A stretch of 64,000 nucleotides of DNA from Candidatus Latescibacterota bacterium (GTDB lineage Bacteria; Latescibacterota; UBA2968; GCA-2709665), in contig OZ244744.1 of the NCBI GenBank assembly GCA_965219455.1, positions 3,136,001 through 3,200,000 on the forward strand, in the 5' to 3' direction. Made by a program: the position numbers and the translations under genes. The notes beneath the pieces were generated by a model. It worked only from the letters and a program-made list of their open reading frames with translations, searched no databases and was not told where the DNA came from. Of this stretch, positions 36,494 through 52,891 are shown piece by piece (position 1 is the stretch's first letter; each line of letters begins with the position of its first letter).

Positions 36494-36521
36494 CGGGCTA
36501 AACCAGGCGTCACGGGAATCA

Positions 36522-36682
36522 GTGCAACCACAAGGGTTGCCCCTGCGGTGTTCGCGGTCTGGCGCGGGGAAGTGTTGGGGCGGATTTGGAAGGAATACCC
36601 AACCGTTGTTATTTTCATAGGTGATGCCATGCCACGTCGGTGAAGACATTATAATTGTATGGGCGCCCCTTTGTGGGCGCCC
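36522..36682 (+). repeat. RAYT-derived unit 1: REP-B (rc) + degenerate RAYT segment + REP-A
   Basis: REP-B 36522-36546; 36561-36656 reads RGEVLGRIWKE..PNR...AMP...III versus RAYT AGEMVQRIWMEMPNR...AMP...III; REP-A 36657-36682. Confidence 0.75.
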
Positions 36683-36708
36683 GATCTGTTTTTTCCTCGC
36701 ATGATGGC

Positions 36709-36737
36709 TTGACACTGTTCCCAAAAGTAATTACTAT
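36709..36737 (+). promoter_or_regulatory. TA promoter with overlapping palindromic operator
   Basis: TTGACA, 17 bp, TACTAT; palindrome AGTAATTACT at 36726-36735. Confidence 0.65.
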
Positions 36738-36785
36738 AATTGCATAACTACCTTCACGATTTTCATCCAATCAGAGGTCAGCAAT

Positions 36786-37028
36786 ATGGCAATCAGGGAT
36801 GTCAAACTTATCGCGATAGGCAACTCCAGGGGTATTCGACTACCGAAAGCGCTGCTGCAAAAATATGGATGGGGGGACTCGCTCGTAATGGAAGAGACTG
36901 AACGAGGGGTTCTGCTGTATGGGAAAGATCGGAATAAGCTGACCTGGAAGGAAACATACCGCGAGATGGCCGCTGAGAATGAAGATTGGAGCGACCTCGA
37001 CGCAACGGTCGCTGATGGCCTGGACTGA
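36786..37028 (+). CDS. mazE: AbrB/MazE-family antitoxin
   Basis: KLIAIGNSRGIRLPK motif; TGATG overlap with the toxin. Confidence 0.9.
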   Translation: MAIRDVKLIAIGNSRGIRLPKALLQKYGWGDSLVMEETERGVLLYGKDRNKLTWKETYREMAAENEDWSDLDATVADGLD

Positions 37029-37360
37029 TGTCCGCATATCCCCGCCGATATACGATATATTTGGCCGACCTCAATCCCGCCGTAGGTGGAGAGATTCAAA
37101 AGGTTCGCCCGGTTGTAGTGGTCAGTCTGGATGTGATGAATCAGTTTCTGGATACGGTTGTCGTGTGTCCGCTTACCACATCTCTGCATCCTCATTGGCG
37201 GGGTAGAATGCAGATCCAATGCGCGGGCAAAGAGGCTGAAATTGCTGCGGACCAGATTCGCACCATTAGCAAACAGCGACTAAAGCGCCGAATTGACAAC
37301 CTGTTCGGCGACGACGCGGCGCAGCTCCGCCGCCTTATCACCGAGATGTATGGGGAATAG
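37028..37360 (+). CDS. mazF: PemK/MazF-family endoribonuclease toxin
   Basis: ADLNPAVGGEIQKVRPVVVVS, CPLTT, DQIRTISKQRL. Confidence 0.92.
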   Translation: MSAYPRRYTIYLADLNPAVGGEIQKVRPVVVVSLDVMNQFLDTVVVCPLTTSLHPHWRGRMQIQCAGKEAEIAADQIRTISKQRLKRRIDNLFGDDAAQLRRLITEMYGE

Positions 37361-37564
37361 CGAAAAACATGGTAAGATGTAGATTCAGCTGGTGCAGTAA
37401 GTGCGGTTGCCCGGACTGAGACATGGGTTCTCCTGAGTAAAAAGGCCTGTGTATTCCGCAACATATCTCGTAAGTATATTGGCTTGGACGATTCTTCGAC
37501 TGGATTGGCCGGTCCTCATTGATCGAGGATCGGCTGTTTCTGTAAATTGCCAGCGTAAGTTCCC

Positions 37565-37602
37565 TTGATTTCAATGAGAATATAGACTATATTGGACTAT
37601 AT
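37565..37602 (+). promoter_or_regulatory. Promoter/operator of the phd-vapC module
   Basis: TTGATT, 17 bp, TATATT; palindrome ATATAG-A-CTATAT and a repeated GACTATAT. Confidence 0.55.
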
Positions 37603-37620
37603 CTGTTGAGAGGAGGACAG

Positions 37621-37905
37621 ATGATCACGCAATATCCCAAACCACGCCGCGTCTGGACGGTCGCAGAGGCCAAGGCACGGTTATCTGAAATCCTTCGTCT
37701 TGCCGAAGCGGAAGGCCCGCAGCGCATTGGGGCGCGGAAGGCTTTCGTTGTGGTGCCCGAGCGGGTGTGGGAGGCTCAGTCTTCACCCCGCAAACCGCTT
37801 GGCCAGTGGTTGATCGACAACATGCCGCGCGGCGTGAATCTCAAAATCCCTGGCGATAGAACGTCCCGGCGGGAGATTCCGTTCGACGACGGAGGAACGG
37901 GGTGA
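37621..37905 (+). CDS. Phd/YefM-family antitoxin
   Basis: WTVAEAKARLSEILRLAEAEGPQRI; AGGAGG RBS; GTGA overlap with the PIN gene. Confidence 0.88.
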   Translation: MITQYPKPRRVWTVAEAKARLSEILRLAEAEGPQRIGARKAFVVVPERVWEAQSSPRKPLGQWLIDNMPRGVNLKIPGDRTSRREIPFDDGGTG

Positions 37906-38321
37906 GCGGTTTTCTCCTCGACACCAACGTGGTCTCCGAACTGACCAGGAGCGTGCCGGACTCGCAGGTTATGGCATTCCTGGCTGAGCAGGACGACTTA
38001 TGGCTGTCGGCGATGGTAGTGCATGAGTTGGAATTTGGTTTGCAACTATTGCCTCACGGGCAACGTCGCGACGTATTGCACTCGGTGCTGTCAGGGTTCG
38101 TCACGGATTACCAGGACCGCATCCTGCCTGTGGACAGAATGGGAGCAAAGTGGGCGGCCTACTTTCGTGCACAGGCGCGTCGATCCGGACGGGTGCTGGA
38201 CCTGGGGGATGCGCTCGTTGCCGGAACTGCCCGGGCTCATGATCTGTCGGTTGCAACCTGGAATGTTGCGGATTTCAATGGCCTGGACGTCAACGTCACC
38301 AATCCCTGGGAACCGCGGTGA
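37902..38321 (+). CDS. vapC: VapC PIN-domain toxin
   Basis: LLDTNVVSE, DALVAGTA, NPW end. Confidence 0.92.
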   Translation: MSGFLLDTNVVSELTRSVPDSQVMAFLAEQDDLWLSAMVVHELEFGLQLLPHGQRRDVLHSVLSGFVTDYQDRILPVDRMGAKWAAYFRAQARRSGRVLDLGDALVAGTARAHDLSVATWNVADFNGLDVNVTNPWEPR

Positions 38322-38355
38322 CCGGGAAAGTGAGGGCAGCCGCAACGGAAAACCA

Positions 38356-38536
38356 GGGCAACCACAAGGGTTGCCCCTACGACGCCATGTTTGGGCGCGG
38401 GTGAATGTGTTGTACTGGCGGACTTGGGCGTTACGCCGAACTGCCTGCCTGCATTGACATAGAGGCATTTTTCGCAATGCCTGACCGAAATTGTGCGTGA
38501 TTTTTCGATTTGTAGGGGCGCCCCTTGTGGGCGCCC
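38356..38536 (+). repeat. RAYT-derived unit 2: REP-B (rc) + degenerate RAYT segment + REP-A
   Basis: REP-B 38356-38380; the segment reads AGE...RTW..TPN...DIEAFFAMPD; REP-A 38512-38536. Confidence 0.75.
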
Positions 38537-38627
38537 TGCCTTTTTTGTCCCACCAAAGGCTTGACATCATCCGATAAAGTAACTATATGACTTCTGTAAC
38601 AGACGGAATCCAAGAAAGGTCGACTGA

Positions 38628-38870
38628 ATGGCAACGTGGGATGTCAAACTGATCGCTATCGGCAACGCCAGAGGAATTCGTCTTCCCGAAGCGCTACTAA
38701 AGAAATACGGCTGGGGCGACTCGCTGGTCCTGGAAGAGACTGAACATGGCATGGTGCTACGCGGCAAAGAACGAAATAAGCTATCCTGGAAGGAAACCTA
38801 CCGAGCCATCGCTGCCGATAATGAGGACTGGAAGGATCTCAACGCGACGGTCGCCGATGGCCTGGATTGA
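38628..38870 (+). CDS. mazE: Second AbrB/MazE-family antitoxin (orphan)
   Basis: 63/80 aa identical to 36786-37028 by hand count; TTGACA at 38561. Confidence 0.9.
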   Translation: MATWDVKLIAIGNARGIRLPEALLKKYGWGDSLVLEETEHGMVLRGKERNKLSWKETYRAIAADNEDWKDLNATVADGLD

Positions 38871-38931
38871 TGTCCGGATTTCCCGGGCGAAATGCCATCT
38901 GCTCCACCGAGTGACGGAGATGTACCGGGAA
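38870..38931 (+). pseudogene. Internally deleted mazF remnant
   Basis: MSGFPGRNAI (cf. MSAYPRRYTI) joined out of frame to LHRVTEMYRE (cf. LRRLITEMYGE); same TGATG overlap as the intact pair. Confidence 0.8.
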
Positions 38932-38942
38932 AGCGGTTCCGG

Positions 38943-39082
38943 TCGCGAACTGTGGAAGACAGAACGATGTCTTGACGGCCACTTGTGTCACACAACGTCA
39001 GTTGTAGGCCAATATCGACGAAAAATGGCCGACAAAATACGTTGATGGCAATGACTGACCGTCAACCGTCGATTCTGCCGGG
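38943..39082. repeat. Six-box symmetric element, copy 1
   Basis: 10-bp boxes (~TTGWYGGYCA) in alternating orientation at 38972, 38986, 39002, 39026, 39042, 39056. Confidence 0.75.
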
Positions 39083-39253
39083 TGCTCTGACGACGGCTAT
39101 AGAATCGAACCTGAAACGACCCCGGTTTGGAGGCGGAATATCTCGTACGGCGGCGGAGAGAAGATCAGGCACTGTGCGTCGAAGTGGCACAACTGCGCCG
39201 TGTCTTCTCTGAAATTTGCGGCAAATGGCGATTACTAAGGCGACGGCTGCGGT

Positions 39254-39464
39254 CTCAACCGATTCCCATCTATCTCTTTGGATACATTTTTCGCCTTTCT
39301 CCACCACATTCGCAGGTTCATTTTCCGTGTAGGGGCGCCTCTTGTGGGCGCCCGGCCTTCCAGCGACACGGTGCGCGCCTGAATATAAACCAGGGCAACC
39401 ACAAGGGTTGCCTGTCTGCCGCCTGCCTCGTCTGCTTCAGCAGGCAGGACAGGCAGGCCCCTGC
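39254..39464 (+). repeat. RAYT-derived unit 3: degenerate RAYT segment + REP-A + 39 bp + interrupted REP-B
   Basis: 39254-39328 matches RAYT 52012-52086 ungapped at 50/75 nt; REP-A 39329-39353; REP-B 39393-39464 with nested insertions. Confidence 0.85.
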
Positions 39465-39492
39465 GGGGGATGGGTGGACTCGATTTTGGGAT

Positions 39493-39640
39493 TCGCGTAA
39501 ACGTTGCGGAAGGCAGAAAAGTGCTTTGACGGCCACTTATGTCCCACAATATCCCTTGTCGGTCAATATTGAGAGAAAATGGCCAACAAAATGCGTTGAT
39601 GGCAATGGCTGTCCGACAACGACCCTCGATTCCGTGGGAT
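39493..39640. repeat. Six-box symmetric element, copy 2
   Basis: All six boxes lie at an offset of exactly +554 from copy 1. Confidence 0.75.
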
Positions 39641-39818
39641 CTGTAGAGGGGGGATGTAGAAAGTGGTAGAGATCCCCGGGGCAATTTAATGAATCAGTCC
39701 GGAAATCAGGGATTGGAATTGAAGCACAGATGATTTCGCCGATTCAGTGGAGATCCTGACGTAAGAAAAAGATTCTATTTGTAGCTGGAACACAAAAGGG
39801 AACTGAGGAGAGTGCTCT

Positions 39819-41015
39819 ATGGAAGGCAAGAGGTTCATTCGGTCGATTCGGCTAGACAACTTATTATCCTATGGTTCCTGGGAACGAGAGTTCGATCTAG
39901 AGCCCTTAAACGTCCTTATCGGCCCTAACGCTTCCGGAAAGTCGAACTTGATCGAAGCGCTCTCGCTTCTCGCAGCAGCGCCTACCAGGGATCTACAGGC
40001 ACCAATTCGGGAAGGGGGAGGCGTTCGCGATTGGTTATGGAAGGGCGCCACCCGACTATCCACGGCGACCTTGGACGTTACCATTGAGTACCATGGTGAA
40101 CAACCGCTCAGGTACAGGCTATCGTTCACGGAAAGCGCGGCGCGTTTCGAACTCAAGGATGAGGCGGTCGAGAGCGAAAGACCTACGCCAGGCAACGAAG
40201 ACCCGTATATCTTCTATCGATACCAGGAGGGCAGGCCGGTGCTCAACGTCTTCACACAGGAGGAGTCCCGGTTTAATCGGCGCCTCACACGTGAAGACGT
40301 GCATGCCGAGCAGTCGATACTGTCTCAGCGACGAGATCCCGACTCCTATCCGGAATTGACGTACTTGGCTAGCAGATTCGAGCGTATGCGCTTTTATCGT
40401 GAGTGGAATCTCGGGCGCTCTGGACCGCCGCGCCTTCCGCAGCAGGCCGACCTCCCGCAGGACAGCCTGCTTGAGGACGCCTCTAATCTCGGCTTTGTGC
40501 TAAGCAGTTTGTTAAATCAACCGCCTGTCAAACGCCAGATACTGGAACAATTGAGAATCTTTCATCCTTCGGTCGAGGATATTCTTGCCACATTCAACAG
40601 CGGTACAGTTCAGTTATTCCTCCACGAAGAAGGCTTGTATCATCCTGTGCCGGCCACTCGCCTCTCTGACGGATCCCTGCGCTTTCTATGTCTTCTCGTC
40701 GTGCTCTGTAATCCCGATCCGCCGCCTGTTGTCTGTATCGAGGAGCCGGAGATCGGCCTGCACCCGGACGTGATCCCGGAAGTTGCGGCGCTTCTGGTGA
40801 AAGCGTCTTCCCATAGCCAAATATTCGTCACAACACACTCTGACATTCTCATTGACGCGCTCACGGATACTCCGGAGGCCGTGGTTGTTTGCGAGAAATC
40901 GGACGGTGCGACGCAACTTCGCCGTCTTGACGCCGACGAACTCAAACCGTGGCTCAAAAAATACCAACTTGGCGAGCTCTGGGTAAAAGGGGAAATTGGA
41001 GGGAATCGGTGGTGA
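39819..41015 (+). CDS. ABC-type (AAA_21/AbiEii-like) ATPase
   Basis: Walker A GPNASGKS, signature LSDG, Walker B IEEPEIGLHP, TTHS. Confidence 0.92.
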   Translation: MEGKRFIRSIRLDNLLSYGSWEREFDLEPLNVLIGPNASGKSNLIEALSLLAAAPTRDLQAPIREGGGVRDWLWKGATRLSTATLDVTIEYHGEQPLRYRLSFTESAARFELKDEAVESERPTPGNEDPYIFYRYQEGRPVLNVFTQEESRFNRRLTREDVHAEQSILSQRRDPDSYPELTYLASRFERMRFYREWNLGRSGPPRLPQQADLPQDSLLEDASNLGFVLSSLLNQPPVKRQILEQLRIFHPSVEDILATFNSGTVQLFLHEEGLYHPVPATRLSDGSLRFLCLLVVLCNPDPPPVVCIEEPEIGLHPDVIPEVAALLVKASSHSQIFVTTHSDILIDALTDTPEAVVVCEKSDGATQLRRLDADELKPWLKKYQLGELWVKGEIGGNRW

Positions 41016-41649
41016 AGATCAAGCTTTATGCCGAAGGAGGAGGTGGTAGCAAGGCGCTCAAAAGGGCGTGCCGCAGGGGTTTTCGCATATTCATTGAGAA
41101 GTCGGGGTTGAAAGTACGGATGCCCGAAATTGTAGCCTCCGGCAGCCGCGGGAACGCGTACGAGGACTTTAAGACGAGACATCGTAATACGACAAAAATG
41201 AAGGCGCGCTGCTTCTGGTGGACGCTGAAAGGGCGGTAGGGGAAACGGGGCCGTGGCAACACCTCAAGGACAGTGATGGCTGGGACCGCCCCGACAGCGC
41301 AACGGACGACCAGTGCCACCTTATGGTGCAAGCAATGGAATCATGGTTTCTGGCGGACCGTTCGGCCCTTGAGGAATACTATGGCCAGGGCTTTCAGGAA
41401 ACCGCGCTCCCTTCGAATCCGCAGATTGAGCAAGTTCCCAAAGGTGACGTCCTCCACGGCATTCGCCGGGCTACCGACAGTACCACAAAAGGCCGTTATG
41501 ACAAGGGATCCCACAGTTTCGAGATCCTGGCGACAATAGACCCTTCAAAAGTGACGAGTGCGTCGCCCCATGCGAAACGATTTATCGAAACACTCTTCAA
41601 GTTTTCAGGAAGTGGAACTGCGGCGGATAAGGATCCTTCGAGCGGGTAA
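41012..41649 (+). pseudogene. DUF4276-like (TOPRIM-related) partner, frameshifted
   Basis: GTGA overlap; KIKLYAEGGG...GSRGNAYEDF in one frame, then LLLVDAE...HLMVQAMESWFLAD...YDKG in another; shift near the A5 run at ~41194-41198. Confidence 0.75.
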
Positions 41650-41705
41650 CAGGTGGATAAATCGCACCGTTAAACTGGTTTCCTTGAAATAGAGAACCGA
41701 TAAAT

Positions 41706-44504
41706 ATGCGACTATCGTGGAATGAAATCCGCGCCCGCGCCGCCAAGTTTGCGCAAGACTGGATGGACAGGGGCTACGAGAAGGGCGAGACACAGCTCTT
41801 CTATAGCGAGTTCTTTAACATATTCGGGATGCCTGTTCGCCGGGTGGCTGCATTCGAGCAACCCGTCAAACTACTCGGCGACAAGCGTGGCTTTATCGAC
41901 CTGTTCTGGAAAGGCGTCCTGCTCGTCGAGCAGAAAAGCGCAGGCCGCGACCTCGTTGCGGCCAAGACCCAGGCCCTCTCCTACTTCCCGGGACTCAAGG
42001 ACGTCGACCTTCCACGCTACATTCTGCTGAGCGACTTCGCAACGTTTGAGCTATACGACCTCGACGAAGACGAAAGCGTCGCCTTCGCCCTGGCCGATCT
42101 ACCTGATAACATTGAAAAGTTCGGCTTTATTCTCGGCCTCCAGAAGCGCACCTTCAAGGATCAAGACCCGGTAAACATTCAGGCGGCCGAGCGTGTGGGC
42201 CTTCTCCACGACGCGCTGGCGGCTTCCGGCTACACCGGCCACGACCTGGAGCAATTCCTCGTTCGGATCGTCTTCTGCTTCTTTGCCGACGACACCGGTA
42301 TCTTCGAGCCGCGCGACATCTTCCTTGACCTGTTGGAAAATAGGACGAACGAAGACGGCTCAGACCTGGGTGGCTGGCTGGCGCAATTGTTCCAGGTGCT
42401 CGACACGCCTGACGACCAGCGCGTCAACACCCTCGACGAAGATCTTGCCCGCTTCCCCTACGTTGACGGGGACCTGTTTCGCGAGACATTGCGCATCCCG
42501 TCGTTCGATGCCCAAATGCGCCAGAGGCTGATTGATGCTTGCCATTTCAATTGGTCGGCTATCTCTCCGGCCATCTTCGGCTCGCTATTCCAGTCTGTGA
42601 TGGACGAGGACGAACGCCGCGCTAAGGGCGCGCACTATACGACCGAACAGAACATCCTCAAGGTTATCGAACCCCTGTTCCTCGACGATCTGCGCGAGGA
42701 GTTCCAACGCCTGAAGTCGCGCCGCGACACGCGTCGCATTCCCGAACTGATCGCCTTCCAGCAGCGGTTAGGGACGTTGCGCCTCTTTGATCCGGCCTGC
42801 GGCTGCGGGAATTTCCTCATCATTGCCTACCGCGAGTTGCGGGCACTGGAAATCGAGGTACTAAAGGAAATTCGCCCGAAACGCCAGGTCGACGCCTTTG
42901 CAGAGTTGCTTTCGGTCGTAGATGTCGATCAGTTTTACGGGATTGATTTGGGGGAGTTTCCGGCGCACATCGCAGAGGTCGCATTGTGGATGATGGACCA
43001 CATTATGAACAACCGGCTGAGCCTGGAGTTCGGCCAGACGTACGTGCGCATTCCGCTGGAGAAATCCCCGCACATCCGGCATGGCGACGCGCTCGAGTTT
43101 GATTGGAGCGAATTACTGCCGCCGGAGGAATGTTCCTACGTGCTCGGCAATCCCCCATTTGTGGGCGCGAAGTTTCAATCGACCGAGCAGCGCGAACAAG
43201 TGCGCGCCATCGCTGCCCTAGGCAAGAGCGGCGGCACGCTCGACTACGTTACCGCGTGGTTCATCAAGGCTGGGAAATACGTTCAGGATAGCGCGGCGCG
43301 GATCGGTTTCGTGGCGACTAATTCCATCACGCAGGGCGAACAGGTTGCACAACTCTGGCCAATCCTATTCGAACGCCATAAACTGGATATCGCCTTTGCA
43401 CACCGTACGTTTGCCTGGGGATCGGACGCGCGTGGTATGGCGCACGTTCACGTGGTGATTATTGGATTGGCCAAACGGGACGATGCACTGCGACAGAAGC
43501 GGTTGTTTTCATACGATAGCCCGAAAAGCGATCCGCAGCAGAGCCAACACACCGCCCTCTCACCCTATTTGTTCGATGCAAGTGGTTTGACCGATTCGGG
43601 AGTTGTCGTAAGGGGGGCACATCTACCGATCAATGGACTACCAAGGCTCATCATCGGCTCCAAGCCCATCGATGGCGGCCATTATATCTTTAAGGTCGAT
43701 GAACGCGCCACTTTCCTTCGCGAAGAGCCGGGCGCTGAGCCTTATCTCCGACCTTTCGTGGGAAGCCGCGAGTTTTTGCAGGGCGGAGAACGTTGGATAT
43801 TGCATCTGGCGGAAGCGCCGCCGCACGTGCTCAAGACGCTACCGAAAGTACGGGAGCGCATAGCGGCCGTCCGGGAATATAGGCTGGCAAGTAAGAGCAA
43901 GCCGACCCAGGCACTCGCCATGACGCCGAAGCAATACCACGTAAACGTCATTCCAACTGAGCCGTTCTTGGCCGTGCCAAAGGTGAGTTCCGAACGGCGC
44001 GAGTATGTGCCGATCGGTTGGCTGGAGCCGCCGACGATCCCAAGCGATCTTGTCTTCGTTCTGAACGACGCGACAAAGCCATTGTTCGCGTTGCTCACCT
44101 CCGCTATGCATTTTAGCTGGCTGCGTCACATCGGCGGACGTTTGGAGAGCCGTTACCGCTATTCGATCGGCCTTGTATACAACACCTTTCCTCTGCCGCC
44201 AGCCCCGCCGGAACGGATGCAACGCCTCGAGCCCCATGCGGAAGCCGTCCTCAGTGCTCGCGCTAACCATCCAAAGGAGACGTTGGCGGACCTGTACGAC
44301 CCCGACCTCATGCCTACCGACCTTCGCAAAGCACATCAGGTCCTGGACCGCGCCGTCGATAAGCTGTACCGACGGAGCGGCTTCGCCTCCGAGCGCGATC
44401 GTGTGGAACATCTATTGGGTCTTTACGAGAAAGTGGTCGCTCCGGTGACGGCCATGGCCAAGCCGAAGCGACGGCGGCGGCGACGAAGGGATGGAAAGGA
44501 ATAG
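41706..44504 (+). CDS. MmeI-like (YeeA-like) single-chain type IIL restriction-modification enzyme
   Basis: N-terminal nuclease FIDLFW...VEQK, AIFGSLFQ, GAHYT, DPACGCGNF, GNPPF, C-terminal TLADLYDP. Confidence 0.9.
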   Translation: MRLSWNEIRARAAKFAQDWMDRGYEKGETQLFYSEFFNIFGMPVRRVAAFEQPVKLLGDKRGFIDLFWKGVLLVEQKSAGRDLVAAKTQALSYFPGLKDVDLPRYILLSDFATFELYDLDEDESVAFALADLPDNIEKFGFILGLQKRTFKDQDPVNIQAAERVGLLHDALAASGYTGHDLEQFLVRIVFCFFADDTGIFEPRDIFLDLLENRTNEDGSDLGGWLAQLFQVLDTPDDQRVNTLDEDLARFPYVDGDLFRETLRIPSFDAQMRQRLIDACHFNWSAISPAIFGSLFQSVMDEDERRAKGAHYTTEQNILKVIEPLFLDDLREEFQRLKSRRDTRRIPELIAFQQRLGTLRLFDPACGCGNFLIIAYRELRALEIEVLKEIRPKRQVDAFAELLSVVDVDQFYGIDLGEFPAHIAEVALWMMDHIMNNRLSLEFGQTYVRIPLEKSPHIRHGDALEFDWSELLPPEECSYVLGNPPFVGAKFQSTEQREQVRAIAALGKSGGTLDYVTAWFIKAGKYVQDSAARIGFVATNSITQGEQVAQLWPILFERHKLDIAFAHRTFAWGSDARGMAHVHVVIIGLAKRDDALRQKRLFSYDSPKSDPQQSQHTALSPYLFDASGLTDSGVVVRGAHLPINGLPRLIIGSKPIDGGHYIFKVDERATFLREEPGAEPYLRPFVGSREFLQGGERWILHLAEAPPHVLKTLPKVRERIAAVREYRLASKSKPTQALAMTPKQYHVNVIPTEPFLAVPKVSSERREYVPIGWLEPPTIPSDLVFVLNDATKPLFALLTSAMHFSWLRHIGGRLESRYRYSIGLVYNTFPLPPAPPERMQRLEPHAEAVLSARANHPKETLADLYDPDLMPTDLRKAHQVLDRAVDKLYRRSGFASERDRVEHLLGLYEKVVAPVTAMAKPKRRRRRRRDGKE

Positions 44505-44780
44505 TGTGGAAATATATGGAGTAAAATTCAGCTCACGAGCCTTGACCGGATAAAGAATCAAGACTACAATAGCATATACATTTGAGATTCCTTCCTACAC
44601 GAGGGCTACCAACGGAGATTGGTATTCTAATGCTAACGTTTTCCGTAAGACACCGGATGTCGCAACACATTCGGAATATTTGGTTTTTGTAATTTAAGAT
44701 TCGACAATCTTCCCCCGTTATATTCAAGGTTCCTGAAGGGGAAGAACAAACCCCGAGTCGTTACGGACGGACATTTTGTT

Positions 44781-46772
44781 ATGAAACTACAAAATACCCC
44801 GACTTCAAGGTCTGAACGTAAATACAAGATGACGGTTGCTGGCCAGTTGTTCAAACATCTGGGTTTGCAGATGTACTCTGGGGCAGTACCTGCAATTTCA
44901 GAACTAATCTCAAACGCATACGACGCCATGGCGAGAAACGTATGGATTGAACTTCCGACTCACACGTCCATCACGTCAAGTGACGAGATTGTAGTGAGGG
45001 ACGATGGACATGGCATGAGTTTTGACGAATGTAACTCTCGCTACTTGTCGGTAGGGAGAGACCGACGAATAAAGCACGATGAATGGACAAAGGAGTACCG
45101 TGATTTGAGTTCCCGGAAAGTTCAGGGAAGAAAGGGCATTGGCAAACTTGCTGGTTTCGGGATAGCAAATTTGATTGACGTCCGAACAATTAAGAGTGAG
45201 AAAATAGCGCATTTTCGAATGGATTATGACGAATTAACAAGAAGCTCGAATTTCGCCGATACGGAAGGATACGCACCCAAATCATTGCCAGATGACGGTA
45301 GACAAACCGACGATCCGGCTGGCACAACGGTTAGACTATCGCGGCTTAAGCTCAGTCGATCGATTAACGAAGAACAATTCAAAAAGAGCATTGCCAGGCG
45401 ACTTCTGGTCATTGACGAGTCCTTTACCGTGCATGTAAACGATACACAAGTGTCGAGACAAGAGATTCCATTTCAATTCAGATTTCCGAAAAGTGCCGGC
45501 GCTTGGCAGACCGATGAACTTTCAAATGGCCAACAATTTCACTGGTGGGCGGGTTTCTGCGATGGTACGATACCGGATGAAGAACAACGCGGCTTTGTTG
45601 TTTACGTGCGAGGGAAGTTGGCACAAACGCCTTGGTTTTTCGACCTTAGTGGTGGCGTTTGGGGACAACATGGCATGCAATATTTCACGGGCGAGATCAA
45701 GGCAGATTTTCTTGATGACAGTGTGGATTTGATTGCCACGGACAGGGGTACAGTTCGGTGGGAGGATCCCGCGGCCGTACCTTTGAAGGATTGGGGGCGA
45801 AAAAAGATCAGGGAGTTACTCGAGACTTGGTCGAAGAAAAGACGCGAAGCGAAACTCAAGAGTCCCAAAGTGATGGAGTTTCTGTCCCAAGCGGAGAAAC
45901 TACCTGAAAGAGAACGTCAGATTTTTGCAAAAGTGGTTGACCGTATTTGCGCTATACCTCAACTCGATAAAGACCAAGAGGGCAGGGATATAGCCGATGA
46001 ACTTGTGGAGTTTGCCTACAACGCATTGACAAATCTGAGTTTTCTTGATGCAATACGACGGTTGAACGCAGCATCTCCAAATGAAATGGACAGATTCAGT
46101 GAAGTGCTTTCCGATTGGGATATCATCGAGCTTGTAAATACGGCGCACCTCGTTAAGGGTCGGGTCGAAATCATCCGAAAATTCAAACAAATGATCGACG
46201 ATAGAGTTCCTGAAAAACCGGACATGCAGAACTACGTACGTGACCATCCATGGCTAATCGATCCGAAATGGACCGCTCTTGCGCACGAGAAAACACTCGA
46301 CAGGTTAATTGCAGATGAATTCGGAATCAAAACGTCAGATGGCAACGAAGGCAGGAGGCGACTTGATTTCTTCTGCCTTGGGGATAGGTATAAGACAGCG
46401 CACGTTGTAGAGACAAAGCGACCTGGAGAAATAGTTGGACGACAGGAATGCGATCAACTTCGTGATTATGTTTTGTTTCTTCAAAGAAAGCTCCAACATG
46501 AGGCTGACGAAGAAAACCGAAGAACGACAGTGCGAGGTCTGTTAATAGCCGATCGCATTCGACCCGAAGATGAGATTCACGCACAGACGCACCAACAGGC
46601 CGGAACATTCGATATTCGCACCTGGGATAATCTGCTAACCACAACGGAAACATTGCATGAAGAATTCCTAAATGTGGTTAGAACACGCGTTCCGTCAGAT
46701 GATCCTAGAATGAGGAGCTTGTTGGACGAATCAATCAATGCACCGATCGATTCAAACGAAGATCAGGGATGA
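44781..46772 (+). CDS. GHKL (MORC-like) ATPase fused to a C-terminal PD-(D/E)XK nuclease
   Basis: ELISNAYDA, DDGHGM, GRKGIGK, GT; C-terminal HPWLID, RLDF...VETKRP. Confidence 0.82.
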   Translation: MKLQNTPTSRSERKYKMTVAGQLFKHLGLQMYSGAVPAISELISNAYDAMARNVWIELPTHTSITSSDEIVVRDDGHGMSFDECNSRYLSVGRDRRIKHDEWTKEYRDLSSRKVQGRKGIGKLAGFGIANLIDVRTIKSEKIAHFRMDYDELTRSSNFADTEGYAPKSLPDDGRQTDDPAGTTVRLSRLKLSRSINEEQFKKSIARRLLVIDESFTVHVNDTQVSRQEIPFQFRFPKSAGAWQTDELSNGQQFHWWAGFCDGTIPDEEQRGFVVYVRGKLAQTPWFFDLSGGVWGQHGMQYFTGEIKADFLDDSVDLIATDRGTVRWEDPAAVPLKDWGRKKIRELLETWSKKRREAKLKSPKVMEFLSQAEKLPERERQIFAKVVDRICAIPQLDKDQEGRDIADELVEFAYNALTNLSFLDAIRRLNAASPNEMDRFSEVLSDWDIIELVNTAHLVKGRVEIIRKFKQMIDDRVPEKPDMQNYVRDHPWLIDPKWTALAHEKTLDRLIADEFGIKTSDGNEGRRRLDFFCLGDRYKTAHVVETKRPGEIVGRQECDQLRDYVLFLQRKLQHEADEENRRTTVRGLLIADRIRPEDEIHAQTHQQAGTFDIRTWDNLLTTTETLHEEFLNVVRTRVPSDDPRMRSLLDESINAPIDSNEDQG

Positions 46773-46775
46773 ACA

Positions 46776-47882
46776 ATGAACAAAGAAAGACGAATTGCGA
46801 TTGATCTGTTCGCCGGGTGCGGCGGATTGACAAAAGGTATTCGCGATGCTGGGTTCAACGTCTCAGCAGCCGTTGAGGTTGATTTCGATGCGGCGCGGAC
46901 CTACCGATGGAACCACCCACGAACGCGCCTGCTGAGAAAAGACATCCGTGAAGTGTCCGCTTCGGATCTCAAACGGGAAACCGGCAACGAGCATATTTCG
47001 CTTCTAGCCGGTTGCGCTCCCTGCCAGGGATTCTGTTCTCTGACGAGCAAGTACGACAAGCCAGACCCTCGAAACGAACTTCTCCTTGTTATGGCCAAGA
47101 TTATCGGAGAGATTCTTCCCCGTACAGTAATTATGGAGAACGTCCCCGGCGTCTTAGGCCGGGGAAAGGCAATTTTCGATAAATTCATTGAAGTTATCTC
47201 CAAACTTGGATACCAGTACAATTGGCGTATTGAGCAGATGGCCGACTTTGGTGTACCTCAATCACGTCGTCGGTTGGTTCTCATAGCCGGACTTGGATTC
47301 GAGGTTCCCTTTCCTGAACCAACCCATGCCCGTGCCAAGGGCGAAATATGCGGTCTGCAACCATGGAACACGGTAAGGCAAGCCATTGGCCACATAGATG
47401 CGCCGATCACGTTAAAGGCAGCCTGGCGCAATGATAGCCCGGAATCTAATGACTGGCATGTGGTCCGAGATCTTCAACCACAGGTCAAGAAACGACTGGA
47501 AGCTGCGGAACCAGGGGAGACATGGTTGGCAATTGATGAGTCGGTGCGTCCTAAATGTCATCGAAGCGGCTACAGGGGCTTTACAAATACGTATGGAAGA
47601 ATGGCTTGGGACCAGGTCTCTCCTACTATAACTGGTGGGTGTACGACGGCATCCAAAGGCCGGTTCGGGCACCCGGATAAATCCAGATATACAATCTCCG
47701 TACGAGAAGCTGCCTTACTTCAGACGTTCCCCGAAGATTACAGATTTGCTACGGATAAGATGGACACCGTATGTGACCTTATAGGCAACGCGGTCCCACC
47801 TCTATATGCAAAACTGGCCGCTACGGAAGTCCTTTCTGCAATTCGCAAGAATCCGGACGAACAAGGTGAAATGCGACCATGA
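46776..47882 (+). CDS. dcm: C5 DNA cytosine methyltransferase
   Basis: [38 protein letters not shown]. Confidence 0.95.
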
Positions 47883-48334
47883 GTCGATGGCCCGGCGACG
47901 CTCGGCAAGAACGTACGACGTTTGGTGGTTTGGTTCGCGGGGAACTGATGGCTCGCGTGCGTAGCAAGGGCAATGAGACAACTGAAAAGCGCCTTGTACG
48001 TCTCTTTCGCGAGTGGCGTTTAACTGGATGGAGACGAAACCAATCGCTTCCAGGTCGACCGGATTTCGTTTTTTCGAAAGAAAAGACCCTCGTCTTTGTG
48101 GACGGCTGTTTTTGGCACGGGCACAATTGCAGAAACCTAACGTCAAAGACAAACCAGAAGGCGTGGCATGACAAAATTGCACGAACCCAAGCCCGGGACC
48201 GACGGAACAACCGTCTGCTTCGCCAGTTGGGATGGAAAGTCATACGTATTTGGGAGTGTCGTCTGGCAAAGGCTCCAGACCTCTGCATGCGTAGGATAAA
48301 ACGCAGACTCGAGGAAAGTAGAGGAACAACATAG
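47879..48334 (+). CDS. vsr: Very short patch repair endonuclease
   Basis: [27 protein letters not shown]; ATGA overlap with dcm. Confidence 0.93.
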
Positions 48335-48451
48335 AACTTGAAATTCGATCAGGAGACTGGGAGGCTTGTCGCTACTGCTTATGATCTGGACCGGGACAGC
48401 ATTGATTTGCGGATTGAATCGCGTGGATCGATCGAGAGAAGGGAGAATCCG

Positions 48452-49591
48452 ATGAGGGTCAGCATTCGAGACAAGGGGCGCTTGAGCGAGGTCTCGCCTG
48501 CCGCCCTGTCGGCCTATGCTCGTGCAGCGGGCTGGACACGGACGGACAGCTACGGGGACTCTTCAGACGTTTATGAATCGGACGGATTGCCGGAGATTAT
48601 CGTGCCGCGCACCCAACAACTGGGAGATTATGCTAACGTGGTGTCGCAACTTATCGATATCTTCGCCGACGTGGCAGGTACCGACGAACTTTCTCTCTAC
48701 CGCGACCTGGTTTCCTCCGACCGAGACGTCATTCGCGTTCGGGGCGACGAAGGCGGCGATGGGGCCGCATCCGCAAATGAAAGGATTAAACTTGCAGGCA
48801 GCGCACGTGGTATGGTACTGGCAGCCGCCTGTTCGCTGCATGATCCGCGGTCGGTCTATCGCGCTGCCGCTGACAAGGAGGCCATGAACTTTGTCCGCAA
48901 ATTACGAATGGGGCAATCCGAGCAAGAATGCCTTGTTGTAACCCTGCTGACCCCTGTCGTGTCGCCACCCATACAACAGTCCTTCATTCAGGATTCGGAG
49001 CACAACGAAGACCCGATTGAGCGCAAGATGACAAGGCGTCTGGCTTCCGCACTGCGAGCCGCCCGGCATGCAACGGAACAAACAATGGGAGGAAAAGTCG
49101 ACGCTTTCTTGCAGGCCGTGGACAACGGTGTAAGCGCCAATCTGTGCGAAGCGCTTGTGAGATTGATCGAAGCATCCACGGCGCTGGAAGTCAGTTTGAC
49201 CTGGGCCCGCACGCATCCGATGAATACGGCGCGTGAGGTCGTTCATTTTGGCAAGGGTGATGCGCCCATCCTCCGTGAGGCCGCGCGGCTGTTCCGTGAT
49301 CGCGGACCGAAACCGGATGTGCTGCTATTCGGTTCTGTTCAACGGGTCAAGAGGCGCCAGGATGAGACGTACGGAACAATCACTTTGCGAGTATACGTTG
49401 ACGGGCAAATTCAGTCAGTCGTAGCCGCCCTCACCCAGTCCGATTACGAGAGAGCCATTGAAGCTCATCAACAAAAGGCACCGGTCATTGTGGCCGGCGA
49501 CCTTGACCGCATTGGTCAACGGTGGCGCTTGTTGAATCCGCGCGTTGTTGCCGTCATTCCGCAAGAGGATATGCAGGAAGAGGGAGAATGA
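48452..49591 (+). CDS. Hypothetical protein (379 aa), possible C-terminal OB-like region
   Basis: GGGAG RBS before ATG 48452; GVSANLCEAL motif; ATGA overlap with the SIR2 stub. Confidence 0.8.
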   Translation: MRVSIRDKGRLSEVSPAALSAYARAAGWTRTDSYGDSSDVYESDGLPEIIVPRTQQLGDYANVVSQLIDIFADVAGTDELSLYRDLVSSDRDVIRVRGDEGGDGAASANERIKLAGSARGMVLAAACSLHDPRSVYRAAADKEAMNFVRKLRMGQSEQECLVVTLLTPVVSPPIQQSFIQDSEHNEDPIERKMTRRLASALRAARHATEQTMGGKVDAFLQAVDNGVSANLCEALVRLIEASTALEVSLTWARTHPMNTAREVVHFGKGDAPILREAARLFRDRGPKPDVLLFGSVQRVKRRQDETYGTITLRVYVDGQIQSVVAALTQSDYERAIEAHQQKAPVIVAGDLDRIGQRWRLLNPRVVAVIPQEDMQEEGE

Positions 49592-49827
49592 GGTCAATCG
49601 ATCCAATCCATTCCCTGGCGTTTTCGATTCAAGCAAATCCTGGCGTGTATGCTATCCTTGTGGGCTCAGGGGTATCACGGTCGGCGAAGATTCCCACAGG
49701 ATGGGAGATAACTCTCGACTTGATTCGCAAGTTGGCAAAACTCGGCAACGAGACTTGCGAACCCGTTCCGGAATGTTGGTATCTGGAGAGATTCGGTAAA
49801 GAGGCGTCGTATTCCGATCTCCTTTGA
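49588..49827 (+). pseudogene. Truncated SIR2-family protein (N-terminal 79 aa only)
   Basis: YAILVGSGVSRSAKIPTGW is the sirtuin GxGxS..x.IP.W NAD-binding start; the frame ends after YSDLL and I see no continuation. Confidence 0.75.
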
Positions 49828-49975
49828 TGTCAAGGCTGCATTCGGTGATTTGTGAGCATCGGTTGGATGATCGCCTGGTCGGTGCGATTGCAGGCCCCTT
49901 TGGTTTGCGATCTCGCCCCAATGCGGAATCTCCATTGATTTCGGTGTCTGACCGATCAAGGGAGAAGTTATTTCA

Positions 49976-50956
49976 ATGACACCTGAAAACTTGGGAAAAC
50001 TGGAATCAGTTGACCTTCGTGAAGTATGGCGGAACGAAGCTGACAATTTTACGCCATGGTTGGGGACGCAAAGGAACCTGGACGATCTCGGTGAAACGCT
50101 CGGTATGCAGATAGAGTTTCAGGCGTTTGAGGAAGCTGTTGGTCCATATTCGGCGGATATATTGTGCCGAGACATTGATGATGATAGTTACGTTGTTATC
50201 GAAAACCAGCTTGAGGAAACGGACCACGACCACCTCGGGAAACTTCTCACGTATGCGGCGCATTTCAAAGTGTCAACCGTGGTCTGGGTCGCAAAGACAT
50301 TTACCGAACAACACCGAGCGGCCGTTGACTGGCTGAATGAGACCTCGGCCGAGGGGACTCAGTTCTTTGCGTTGGAAATTGAGGTCTGGCGAATCGGTGA
50401 GTCCGCGTTCGCGCCGAAATTCAATATGGTGGCCAAACCGAACAACTGGACGAAGGGAGGTAGATCAACTGCCGCCAGTTTGACGGAGACGCAGCGAGTT
50501 CAGCTTGAATTCTGGAAAGGATTCCAAGACCACGTTTCCCGGCATGGACAGCAGATCAAACTCTCTGCGAGTCCGAAAGCGAAAACCAGTATGGCCGCAG
50601 GGGGCTTGGGGCGTACGGGTTTCCTCCTCGCCGCTGTGGCCTCGACGTATTCCGAAACCAGGGGATGGAACGGTCAGGAACTAAGGGCGGAACTAAGCAT
50701 CAGCCGGGGAGAACTCTCGGGCCGATTTCACGACTTTCTCCAATCCGAAAAGTCCGAGATCGAACGGGAGATGGGCGGAGAGTTGAACTGGTACAATCCG
50801 GAGGATTCGAATGCCTGTAGAATTTACTCTCGCAAAGACGTGGAACTATACGATCCGGATGCCCGCAATGAGCAGTACACTTGGCTTCTGGAGCAACTCG
50901 AGAGTTTCCATCGAGTCTTCGCGGAGCGGATCCAGAAGTTGGAACCTGCGCCCTAA
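49976..50956 (+). CDS. NucS-like PD-(D/E)XK nuclease + DUF4268-like domain protein
   Basis: LREVWRNEADNFTPWL, ADIL, VIENQLEETDHDHLGKLLTYAA, QLEFW. Confidence 0.82.
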   Translation: MTPENLGKLESVDLREVWRNEADNFTPWLGTQRNLDDLGETLGMQIEFQAFEEAVGPYSADILCRDIDDDSYVVIENQLEETDHDHLGKLLTYAAHFKVSTVVWVAKTFTEQHRAAVDWLNETSAEGTQFFALEIEVWRIGESAFAPKFNMVAKPNNWTKGGRSTAASLTETQRVQLEFWKGFQDHVSRHGQQIKLSASPKAKTSMAAGGLGRTGFLLAAVASTYSETRGWNGQELRAELSISRGELSGRFHDFLQSEKSEIEREMGGELNWYNPEDSNACRIYSRKDVELYDPDARNEQYTWLLEQLESFHRVFAERIQKLEPAP

Positions 50957-51059
50957 AGACAATTGGTACGACCACCTTCGCAAAAAGTATCAGGACCTTC
51001 AACTACTGTCAATCCGGTCAATCATGTGAACGTGTCGCCTCATATGCAAAGCGACAATT

Positions 51060-51100
51060 TACTCAATACGTTGAGTATTTTTACTCAATGCATTGAGTAA
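51060..51100. promoter_or_regulatory. Pair of palindromic operator-like sites
   Basis: TACTCAA-TACG-TTGAGTA and TTACTCAA-TGCA-TTGAGTAA, 22 bp apart. Confidence 0.5.
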
Positions 51101-51176
51101 TTCGTTGAATTTGCGTCCAAATGCCACGGAACTGCCGCGCCGTCTGCATAAACGAAGGCCACCGCCACGCAAACAA

Positions 51177-51807
51177 GGGCAACCACAAGGGTTGCCCCTA
51201 CGCGGTACAGGGTATTCCGCTGGGCGTGAGATGCGCTTCGACTATCGATTCATCGTATTTGTCATATTTATCGCAATGCCCAGCCCTATGTATGGCATCA
51301 ACACAATTGTAGGGGCGCCCCTTGTGGGTGCCCTGCCTCGCCGCGACACGACGGTCACCGTCGCAGACCCGCGGGCCGCCGCGTGGATTGCCCCAAGGGG
51401 GTACGGGTATTCGATTTGGAGTGAGTTGCCCAACTGGCATCGAACCAGCACAGTTGGCATATTTGTTGCAATGCACAATCAAGTCCACCTGATGATTGAA
51501 ATTGCAGGCGCGTCCCGTGGGCGCCCGGCCATCCAAGACGCAATGGTCGCCGCAACGAATACGCGGGCAACCACAAGGGTTGCCCCTACAACATCACGGT
51601 CGGTCGTGGGTTAATGAGGTGGAGTGGCGGCGGCGAATTCGGGCAAAATGCCGAACGGATTTTCATCCGATGAATTGAAAACATTCGTCTCAATGCTTCA
51701 CCACATGCGCGGAATTATTCCATTTGTAGGGGCGTCCCTTGTGGGCGCCCGGGGTTAAAGAGAAGCGATGCGTGCCTTAACATAATCCAAAACAACCACG
51801 GGGGTTG
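51177..51807 (+). repeat. RAYT-derived units 4-6 in tandem (~190-225 bp each)
   Basis: REP-B at 51177, 51373 (degenerate), 51565, 51790 (truncated); REP-A at 51309, 51504, 51726. Segments read FIAMPSPMYGINTI, IWSELPN...FVAMHNQVHLMIEI, and MPNGF...FVSMLHHMRGIIPF. Confidence 0.85.
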
Positions 51808-52434
51808 ATCCGACAGGTGAACGGCGTGTACGATCCGGAAATCCATCATCGCCGGTCGATGAGACTGAAGGGATACGACTATTCGCAGGCAGGGGCGTAC
51901 CTTGTTACCGTTGTCGCACATGGACGGATGACGCATTTCGGCGATGTGGTTAAGGGTCGGATGCAGTTGAACCCGGCCGGAGAAATGGTCCAACGAATAT
52001 GGATGGAAATGCCCAATCGATTCCCACCTATCATTATGGACGAATTTATCGCCATGCCAAACCACGTTCATGGAATCATCATCCTGGCAGGTGCGGGCAT
52101 TGCGGGCGCCCCAACACCTAACGATCGATCGGACATCGGTACAAGAAAAAATGCAACCACAGGGGTTGCCTCTACATCGGATGGGCGCACGAGACTGGGG
52201 GATGTGGTAGGTGCATTTAAATCATTGACAACATTGGAATATACGCGTGGTGTGCGCGACAAGAACTGGCCGCCGTTTCAGGGACGGTTGTGGCAGCGGA
52301 ATTTCTATGAACATATCGTTCGGACCGACGTGTCATTGCAGCAATATCGCAAGTATATAGTTGACAATCCGGTGCAATGGCCATTTGACCGTGAGAACCC
52401 GATGGCCGTAAGTCCCAGGTCGCACTCGCTATAG
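51805..52434 (+). mobile_element. REP-associated tyrosine transposase (RAYT, Y1 HUH)
   Basis: HHRRSMRLKGYDYS, MPNHVH (HUH), WQRNFYEHIVR, catalytic YIVDNP; flanked by REPs; true start may be GTG 51826. Confidence 0.92.
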
Positions 52435-52474
52435 CCAACGATATCCCGGCCATCACCTCAATACGCACAGACGA

Positions 52475-52851
52475 GGGCAACCACAAGGGTTGCCCCTACG
52501 CGGTACAGGGTATACAATTTCCAACCAGATCGGATGAATGATCGAAATTGTAGGGGCGCCCCTTGTGGGCGCCCGCCTGCCTCAGTCGGAAATGCCACGA
52601 CCATAGAAACCAGGGCAACCACAAGGGTTGCCCCTACACGGTACGGGGAATACAATTTACAACCGGGTGCAATGAATGATCGAAATTGTAGGGGCGTCCC
52701 TTGTGGGCGCCCGGCGTTTCGGCGAAGCAATGCGTGTCTGAACATAAACCAAAGCAACCACAAGGGTTACCCCTACACGGTACGGGGTATGCAATTTCCA
52801 ACCAGATCGGATGAACCATCGAAATTACAGGGGCGCCCCTTGCGGGTGCCC
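52475..52851. repeat. BIME-like tandem REP array, period 138-139 bp
   Basis: REP-B at 52475, 52613, 52752; REP-A at 52550, 52688, 52827; conserved linker CGGTACRGGG..CAATTT.CAACC.G...ATGAA..ATCGAAATT. Confidence 0.92.
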
Positions 52852-52891
52852 GGCCTTCCGATTATCTTTTTAGAAAAACGGAGGAGATCCG

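Follow-up and report, generated by a model that had tools for sequence, protein, structure and literature searches.

A stretch of 64,000 nt (hereafter the window; bases 3136001-3200000 of a single 5.84-Mb contig, OZ244744.1, 58% G+C) from the genome of a Candidatus Latescibacterota bacterium (assembly GCA_965219455.1; G000 below) harbors a gene coding for a RAYT, a tyrosine transposase associated with repetitive extragenic palindromes (REPs), embedded in an array of REP hairpins, and the long linker of this array reads as a decayed copy of part of the RAYT gene itself. The region is probably a REPtron kept across the genus, in which an array resembling the bacterial interspersed mosaic elements (BIMEs) and carrying RAYT-pseudogene linkers arose as a by-product of repeat-anchored duplication. 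It occupies a 16.4-kb gap between a dimethylglycine-oxidase-like (DMGDH-like) gene on the left (34022-36493) and a homocysteine S-methyltransferase gene on the right (52892-53896; window coordinates are used unless a genome position is indicated). The gap contains, in this order, MazE/MazF, Phd/VapC, an orphan MazE, a defence island and the RAYT gene. Nine relatives of the same genus (G001, G002, G004, G008, G009, G010, G012, G013 and G014) have syntenic gaps of 4.8 to 22.7 kb between matching flanking genes, and the phd-vapC DNA of the ten genomes falls into three clades, {G000, G013}, {G001, G009, G012} and {G002, G004, G008, G010, G014}. One further genome, G015, is a member of another genus.

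RAYT-derived linkers in the REP array

Two types of REP make up the array. REP-A consists of GTAG followed by the stem GGGCGCCC, and REP-B is its near reverse complement, with the stem GGGCAACC/GGTTGCCC. A unit is composed of a REP-B, ~107-137 nt of RAYT-derived DNA extending back to about codon 46, and a REP-A. The preliminary description had defined it as a RAYT segment followed by REP-A, 38-39 nt and REP-B; this succession is present, and what it had missed is the upstream REP-B and the reach to codon ~46. The array and its gene comprise the following features.

36522..36546, reverse strand: REP-B (GCAACC-stem type), left end of unit 1, 28 nt past the stop codon of the DMGDH-like gene; found by pattern scan with 2 mismatches
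36565..36656, forward strand: RAYT-derived fragment 1, reading RIWKEYPT...AMP with a deletion; z 3.8
36657..36682, forward strand: REP-A of unit 1, with a 1-nt insertion; followed by a T run and terminator-like
38356..38536, forward strand: unit 2, with REP-B 38356-38380, RAYT fragment 38381-38511 and REP-A 38512-38536 followed by a T run
39254..39412, forward strand: unit 3, with RAYT fragment 39254-39328, REP-A 39329-39353, a 39-nt spacer and a truncated REP-B 39393-39412
51177..51333, forward strand: unit 4, with REP-B 51177-51201, RAYT fragment ~51247-51308 (FIAMPSPMYGINTI) and REP-A 51309-51333
51414..51589, forward strand: unit 5, with RAYT fragment 51414-51503, degenerate REP-A 51504-51526, a 38-nt spacer and REP-B 51565-51589
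51591..51813, forward strand: unit 6, with RAYT fragment 51591-51725, REP-A 51726-51750 and degenerate REP-B 51789-51813
51805..52434, forward strand: intact RAYT (TnpAREP) gene; open reading frame (ORF) from TTG 51805, homologues suggesting GTG 51817; 205-209 aa
52475..52851, forward strand: downstream array of alternating REP-B (52475, 52613, 52752) and REP-A (52550, 52688, 52827)

Each of the six REP-A upstream of the gene had been described as directly preceded by a degenerate copy of a RAYT segment, and this holds. The 140 nt located 5' of each REP-A were aligned locally to RAYT codons 41-90 (51937-52086) and compared with 1000 dinucleotide shuffles each. The z scores were 3.8 for the REP-A at 36657, 4.4 at 38512, 14.7 at 39329, 7.3 at 51309, 4.5 at 51504 and 6.4 at 51726, the observed score being reached by 5, 2, 0, 0, 6 and 1 shuffles, respectively. 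Moreover, all six fragments lie in register, at the offset expected from their own REP-A. No RAYT similarity was detectable by the same test upstream of the three REP-A of the downstream array (z ≤1.0, with 213-832 of 1000 shuffles reaching the score), whose linkers measure ~50 nt and 38-39 nt. The match claimed between 39254-39328 and 52012-52086 is exact, with 50 of 75 positions identical without gaps, against a mean of 18.5 (sd 3.8) and a maximum of 34 for 20000 random 75-mers of the genome; the fragment of unit 4 shares 41 of 75 positions with the RAYT segment. A tblastn search with the RAYT, one of the checks proposed at the outset, recovered three fragments, at 39257-39451 (E 9e-4), 51414-51593 (6e-5) and 51645-51923 (3e-5). 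The fragments were sought by anchored identity and softer scoring; local scoring at +2/-3 missed most of them, at 65-70% identity.

The ten genomes (the nine gaps and the window) hold 30 units. Full length, ~183-200 nt with most at 184-189, is reached by 22 of them, which can be aligned over their entire extent; the spacing from REP-B to REP-A is 158-163 in most of these. A profile of the 22 full-length cores, with the REPs left out and 2 of the 22 coming from G000 itself, was searched against the whole genome. Its two G000 members, units 2 and 6, score E 1.8e-16 and 1.4e-34, respectively. The profile matches the intact RAYT gene at 51952-52079 (model positions 6-129 of 136; genome-wide E 6.9e-6), and the long linker is therefore a decayed copy of RAYT codons ~46-90. 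It also touches the HUH region of a RAYT paralogue at 954 kb (E 0.029). Direct reading of the profile consensus gives the core translation NMPNRFFSDELRTFVAMSDHLRGIVPIVGA, to be compared with EMPNRFPPIIMDEFIAMPNHVHGIIILAGA in the RAYT gene.

The unit is restricted to this locus. In five relatives the 137-nt core has 19 matches, every one of them inside the syntenic gap. In G000, the significant core matches all lie within the window; the other matches are weak (E ≥0.024), one being in the HUH region of the paralogue. Dispersal of such fragments over the genome, a possibility raised against the original proposal, was thus looked at, and the complete REP-B/RAYT/REP-A unit was found confined to the locus. 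Elsewhere in G000, decayed pieces of the C-terminal half (C-half) of a RAYT (GAFKS helix region) stand just after a REP-B, at genome positions 4145537-4145741, 4199201-4199371 and 1822350, with identities of 46, 44 and 39 of 75 against a random maximum of 35; they accompany REP doublets or a single REP-B, and their neighbour genes are ordinary.

The units are probably pseudogene debris now, and they evolve faster than the neighbouring coding DNA. Within the five-genome clade they are 62-92% identical, versus 85-93% for phd-vapC DNA, and between clades 53-77%, versus 77-87%. In G002, three units located on either side of the RAYT gene share 84-92% identity. This divergence fits near-neutral drift with occasional local copying. 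The comparison of identities between species with the coding DNA of each clade gave no clear sign of selection on the unit, and constraint is not claimed, the high identity between some species being matched by the coding DNA of their clade.

The RAYT gene and its REPs

The protein harbors the HUH motif MPNHVHG and the C-terminal catalytic-tyrosine region LWQRNFYEH. Among 22 aligned homologues, H89, W163, R165 and N166 are invariant, and H87, Q164, Y168 and H170 are found in at least 90%. Family models score below their cut-offs, with 16.6 bits for Pfam Y1_Tnp (cut-off 23) and 50.3 for NCBIfam REP_Tyr_transpos (cut-off 80), the latter over the C-terminal part only; class 2 TnpAREP proteins align to PF01797 only in part, according to the sections of Quentin et al. 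2018 (PMC6006769) drawn on here. Orthologues with 75-80% identity are present in the syntenic gaps of G014 (80%), G010 (77%) and G002, adjoining the methyltransferase gene in G014 and G010; the gene is split across contigs in genome G006 and only a remnant is left in G008. The other RAYT copies of G000 are paralogues at 37-44% identity or fragments. The gene thus appears, from its sequence and position, to be a single, vertically inherited RAYT of TnpAREP subclass-2.4-like type, kept at one place.

As had been noted, the segment copied in the array is followed within the intact gene by a degenerate REP-A. An in-frame degenerate REP doublet lies after MPNHVHG, with a REP-A-like sequence at 52087-52111 and a REP-B-like one at 52152-52176. 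The doublet is intact in the RAYT gene of G015 (REP-A, 15-nt spacer, REP-B), other hairpins with GTAG/CTAC feet occupy the matching point in the RAYTs of genomes G017 and G039, and the consensus of the 22 database homologues at the insert reads VGAxLVGA...ATTRVAPT. The 37% identical paralogue at 954 kb has no REP insert. A REP-B also abuts the start of the gene, intact in G002 (at 16522) and degenerate in G000 (51789-51813, 17 of 25 positions to the consensus); it lies 58 nt upstream of the gene in G015. The parts of Quentin et al. 2018 used here already report an in-frame REP doublet for TnpAREP subclass 2.4, which they equate with RAYT group 4 of Bertels et al., and describe an HUH/Y1 protein flanked by GT[AG]G-footed REPs, as at this locus; unlike here, those parts do not mention partial gene copies as spacers of the REP array. 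Nor are RAYT-derived spacers described in the portions of the literature covered, including Nunvar 2010, Di Nocera 2013, Quentin 2018 and Bertels 2017, supplements being outside this scope. The architecture, which the preliminary description believed undescribed, is therefore in print as regards the doublet and not found there as regards the spacer. The new elements are limited to the long linker of RAYT origin and the repeated occurrence of partial duplications ending at REPs.

Two other RAYT loci of G000 were inspected. The intact paralogue (genome positions 951156-954655) immediately follows the gene for a type I restriction R subunit, and a RAYT pseudogene cluster (4941988-4947155) has a type I methylase gene on one side and an HNH gene on the other. 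Each of the three loci of this genome with an intact RAYT or a RAYT pseudogene cluster therefore adjoins restriction or defence genes.

A whole-genome pattern scan with at most 3 mismatches found 96 REPs in G000, of which 64 are of B type and 14 are at the locus. The array is BIME-like: two REP variants alternate in orientation, with two linker classes (A-38/39-B and B-~137-A), in tandem, and the number of units varies between genomes and in one strain contig. Alternating REPs, short and long linkers and variable tandem number are likewise features of the enterobacterial BIMEs in the parts of Nunvar et al. 2010 consulted; the differences are that the long linker is here a recognisable piece of a transposase gene, and that the array is confined to the RAYT locus, not dispersed. 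A single-copy, syntenic and vertically inherited RAYT with cognate REPs also recalls the REPINs and RAYTs of Bertels and Rainey 2011 and Bertels et al. 2017, as far as these were drawn on. However, many dispersed inverted doublets, which characterize REPINs, were not found in G000, where the scan gave two A/B doublets outside the locus (4145653/4145717 and 4199282/4199338) and the dispersed population consists of single REP-B.

These dispersed REP-B amount to 57 sites outside 36.0-53.0 kb (for example 5097-5121 in the window), each a single copy. Conservation extends beyond the hairpin at these sites, over ~17 nt on the upstream side (GCGCCG...TTG.ATTT) and no fewer than 45 nt on the downstream side (..CGTCGTGGCGC.GATATCGCCGATTGACATCGCC.GGCCGTATC). 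What is mobile in G000 therefore seems to be, instead of the bare hairpin, a larger element with REP-B at its core. With the T runs that follow them, the REP-A hairpins of the locus at 36660-36683 and 38515-38537 resemble intrinsic terminators just 5' of the two mazE genes (36660-36737 and 38515-38600), and a promoter-like TTGACA-17-TACTAT site is present at 36709-36737, 5' of mazE1. A terminator role for these two hairpins is plausible from consensus scans. REPs are sparse at the locus in several genomes devoid of a local RAYT (G009, G001 and G013). G012 also has no local RAYT, yet it retains 12 REP hits in clusters at both ends of the gap, and this persistence suggests a recent loss of the gene from between flanking units.

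Origin and multiplication of the units

Two cases of breakpoints at REPs bear on how the units arose. In G015, three tandem copies with a period of 564-565 nt each consist of the 5' untranslated region, the N-terminal half of the gene (aa 1-98), a REP doublet and a short C-half remnant, and the last copy continues into the intact RAYT gene. Copy 2 is ~99% identical to copy 3 upstream of REP-A and matches copy 1 downstream of it; such a triplication is what would be expected if an array of two copies had exchanged unequally with its sister at REP-A. The second case is a contig from the public run X10 (record 13, 853 nt, depth 4.6) that joins 51591 to 51823 and so is without unit 6, the deletion being exactly one REP-B-to-REP-B interval. 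Together, they point to REP-anchored exchange. The contigs of the four public runs are short and end at REPs; most joints have 20-32 nt per side, at REPs, and were left unused since they probably stem from further copies of the REPs or from other organisms, and the weak or absent cover of 44.7-48.6 kb in runs X4, X7 and X10 is no evidence for absence.

A survey of RAYT loci for self-derived fragments, as had been advised, covered 79 loci from many phyla, 68 of them with an intact RAYT. Self-matches in the flanks were present in 19 of the 68 and confined to the REP insert in 12 of these 19. Self-derived coding pieces (at least 12 aa of conserved coding sequence within 4 kb) were present at 7 of the 68 loci, two full and five partial; partial self-copies of RAYT genes are therefore recurrent but uncommon.

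We propose that the array would have grown by duplication of the stretch between the REP-B before the RAYT gene and the REPs inside it, each event leaving a partial 5' copy upstream of the intact gene. A shortened version, with REP-B joined near codon 46, may later have been re-amplified locally, and larger segmental duplications would have carried this shortened unit along too. The exchange itself would most likely be homology-dependent, through unequal exchange or slippage between directly repeated REPs or units. We lean toward such a RecA or slippage route over catalysis by the RAYT because the units do not leave the locus, have survived in G004 and G008 where an intact RAYT is missing from it, and in some cases were copied in larger blocks.

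Catalysis by the enzyme would imply that it cut single-stranded DNA at REPs in and around its own gene and rejoined it, the unit being a long-spacer REPIN-like substrate copied locally. Several observations speak for this: the unit is bounded by two inverted GTAG-footed REPs, the exchange point in G015 lies within ~25 nt of REP-A despite ~125 nt of homology on offer, the strain contig differs by an exact one-interval deletion or duplication, the alike G002 copies on either side of the RAYT gene are recent, and units are better kept in the RAYT-bearing G014, G010 and G002 and degenerate in G012 and G013, which have no local RAYT. However, G004 and G008 have no intact RAYT at the locus, yet their units are 88-90% identical to those of G014; in none of six genomes has the unit left the locus, as a mobilised element would; the copying of units 1 and 2 took in a 1.84-kb block that included genes; and the breakpoint cases number only two. 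Catalysis is for these reasons unlikely. The earlier suggestion that cutting at REPs inside the gene duplicated the segment thus stands for the RAYT origin, the gene's own doublet and the two breakpoints, the RAYT being only a possible cutter. Its extension, in which the unit is a live substrate and REP-bounded segments (perhaps including captured toxin-antitoxin cassettes) are duplicated and deleted by the enzyme, is markedly improbable; if true, the locus would correspond to a cassette array operated by an HUH nuclease, its recombination sites having been seeded by the gene for that enzyme.

It is also conceivable that several full RAYT genes were inserted or duplicated here, each decaying separately to a piece beside its REP. 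Other RAYT pseudogene pieces exist in G000 at 3.89, 4.93 and 4.945 Mb, REPs with C-half flanks occur at the three positions given above (4.146, 4.199 and 1.822 Mb), and G015 carries longer, less decayed partial copies. Nevertheless, 22 full-length units share two identical boundaries and align end to end, which indicates amplification of one shortened ancestor, and no unit retains codons 1-45 or the C-half; independent decay is very unlikely. With duplication anchored at the repeats as the preferred account, the units would at most act as direct repeats promoting loss or duplication of the intervening DNA.

The locus as a defence hotspot

The toxin-antitoxin (TA) modules, orphan antitoxin and defence genes reported earlier are present as stated. 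In addition to the array, the gap contains the following features.

36786..37360, forward strand: type II TA pair, MazE1 36786-37028 (Pfam MazE_antitoxin 1.8e-4) and MazF1 37028-37360 (PemK_toxin 2.7e-24)
37606..38321, forward strand: Phd/YefM-like antitoxin 37606-37905 (Pfam 4.3e-5) and PIN/VapC toxin 37902-38321 (1.9e-10)
38628..38870, forward strand: orphan MazE2, 79% identical to MazE1, with only ~28 nt of mazF left
38951..39075, forward strand: D8 element copy 1, a ~120-nt locus-specific repeat (repeat families, relatives)
39498..39639, forward strand: D8 element copy 2, upstream of the HEC-01 genes (repeat families, relatives)
39819..41015, forward strand: HEC-01A ATPase (PADLOC 2.7e-171)
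40949..41239 and 41218..41649, forward strand: HEC-01B/DUF4276, split over two frames (PADLOC 4.1e-18 and 8.8e-52)
41706..44504, forward strand: MmeI-like type IIG restriction-modification (R-M) enzyme, five MmeI Pfam domains (PADLOC REase_MTase_IIG, E 0)
44781..48334, forward strand: type II R-M module, with BbrUII/HgiDII-like REase 44781-46772, Dcm 46776-47882 and Vsr 47879-48334
48338..49591, forward strand: PDC-M02B (PADLOC)
49522..49827, forward strand: PDC-S65 SIR2 protein stub, 101 aa (PADLOC); full length is 579-608 aa in relatives
49976..50956, forward strand: PDC-S11/DUF4268 (PADLOC)

MazE/PemK and Phd/PIN are type II TA modules, formed by adjacent small genes of known families. Both toxin domains score above the Pfam cut-offs, and the antitoxins below them, MazE1 with 21.8 bits (cut-off 24.7) and the Phd/YefM-like protein with 23.6 (cut-off 29.8). 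A segmental duplication of 1.84 kb relates unit 1 and MazE1 to unit 2 and MazE2 (repeat families D2, D17 and D20, spacing 1842-1854). The genes from HEC-01 to PDC-S11 constitute a defence island, made of known and candidate defence genes whose content varies between relatives; the NCBIfam BbrUII/HgiDII match of the REase reaches 295.7 bits, below the cut-off of 550. Two of the defence genes look broken, HEC-01B, with the frame split near 41220-41239, and the PDC-S65 SIR2 gene, reduced to its stub. Beside the locus, the homocysteine S-methyltransferase family is much expanded, with 11 matches in G000 and up to 35 in G017.

The island modules of the relatives include Fic, Schlafen/AlbA_2, DUF4365, HNH, SIR2 and AAA_14-DUF4143. 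For the shared modules, the order in the ten genomes is RDD, MazEF, Phd-VapC, MazE, Fic, HEC-01 and MmeI, next a module that is either the type II R-M one or one containing DUF4365 (together with Schlafen/AlbA_2 in G013 and with HNH in G009), and then PDC-M02B, SIR2, further genes and RAYT. The genomes differ by presence or absence of modules, the order being constant. Cargo turnover is brisk: although G000 and G013 are 92% identical in phd-vapC, they are unlike in MazEF and Fic, in their R-M or Schlafen module, at the island's 3' end and in the RAYT itself. The pattern scan found no REP between 39412 and 51177, a stretch of 11.7 kb, and swaps of modules within the island therefore lie away from REPs; this is also the case for the alternative modules between MmeI and PDC-M02B, and the 18.8-kb island of G009 gave a single REP-like hit. 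In G004, G008, G010 and G014, units are preceded by remnants of the VapC 3' end, so that those breakpoints lie inside genes. The comparison across related genomes, as proposed earlier, thus found the variable unit number and cargo that had been predicted, with island junctions away from the REPs.

The preliminary description had interpreted the array as an integron-like landing site for defence cargo, in which REP units would be recombination sites capturing and losing TA and defence cassettes. In chromosomal integrons, small cassettes, of which many are TA modules, are separated by repeats that form hairpins, and an enzyme acting on single-stranded DNA hairpins is encoded at one end. The locus is alike in its hairpin repeats between small cassettes, TA modules among them, and in the enzyme of that kind encoded at one end, and small cassettes are bracketed by units in REP-rich relatives. 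Moreover, the island content varies between species, the closest pair included, the three G000 loci with an intact RAYT or pseudogene cluster adjoin restriction or defence genes (the four dispersed REP-flanked fragments do not), and an E. coli REPtron locus replaced by a TA operon is cited in the consulted parts of Quentin et al. (PMC6006769). However, the ten genomes show a single module order without shuffling, and neither reordering nor gain of cassettes at repeats was seen in them. The junctions internal to the large defence island are REP-free, units 1 and 2 were duplicated along with genes, and some breakpoints are intragenic. The locus also differs from integrons in having no IntI and no attC, and in cassettes with their own promoters, as the promoter-like site of MazE1 illustrates; no integrase family and no recombinase besides the RAYT was found among the 17 larger ORFs scanned, smaller ORFs being outside the scan. 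Finally, dispersed REP doublets with RAYT fragments lie beside ordinary genes. A cassette array of this kind is extremely unlikely, and the claim of a landing array is not sustained.

A genome-wide link between REPs and cargo was considered and rejected, most dispersed A-type REPs having no HUH flank (the best reaches 33 of 75, at genome position 1379718). A cargo link at the four dispersed RAYT-flanked loci was likewise discarded, the neighbours being two-component, HEAT, succinyl-CoA ligase, BlaR/BlaI-like and heparinase-like genes. The TA modules and the defence island form an old variable island at a hotspot, changing by loss and replacement of modules independently of REPs, and at this locus a REPtron shares its place with a variable defence hotspot, without REP-based capture of cargo.

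The D8 element, with the boxes TTGTTGGCCA / TGGCCAACAA, is present in 19 copies in nine of the ten genomes and nowhere else in G000. It stands 5' of HEC-01 and of MmeI, and on both sides of the Fic gene in G002, G008, G009 and G013; the two copies of the window enclose unit 3. It may be an operator, a leader or a recombination site; its alifold structure is weak (-10.4), and a search of 36400-53000 against Rfam gave only a chance-level match to SprD (E 0.13).

Several points weigh against the view of the region as a REPtron multiplied by repeat-anchored duplication. The X10 contig is a single record of low depth, and breakpoints at REPs fit RecA or slippage and RAYT-catalysed exchange alike. 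The proposal does not account for the junction between REP-B and codon ~46, and no REP or GTAG was seen at that point of the gene. RDD, MazEF, Phd-VapC and MazE are each bracketed by units in REP-rich relatives, as a cassette model would likewise predict, and pure vertical loss would need many events to account for the wide difference in content between G000 and G013. In addition, some units of different species are as alike as coding DNA (G014_4597 and G008_947 at 90%, G014_203 and G002_136 at 89%), for which weak constraint or gene conversion is possible.

If the units are only debris, the finding amounts to an annotation note and a caution on ORF calling across REP arrays, and it explains the assembly breaks inside this RAYT gene. 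The action of RAYTs on REPs in living cells is still largely inferred. The spacers, as datable pieces of the enzyme's own gene, provide a natural record of REP-anchored events, and the G015 triplication is a fresh example of a breakpoint at an intragenic REP. Such arrays would offer a simple substrate for plasmid assays separating RAYT-catalysed from RecA-dependent exchange. Finally, a REPtron can long occupy a hotspot of TA and defence turnover without its REPs being the junctions of that turnover.

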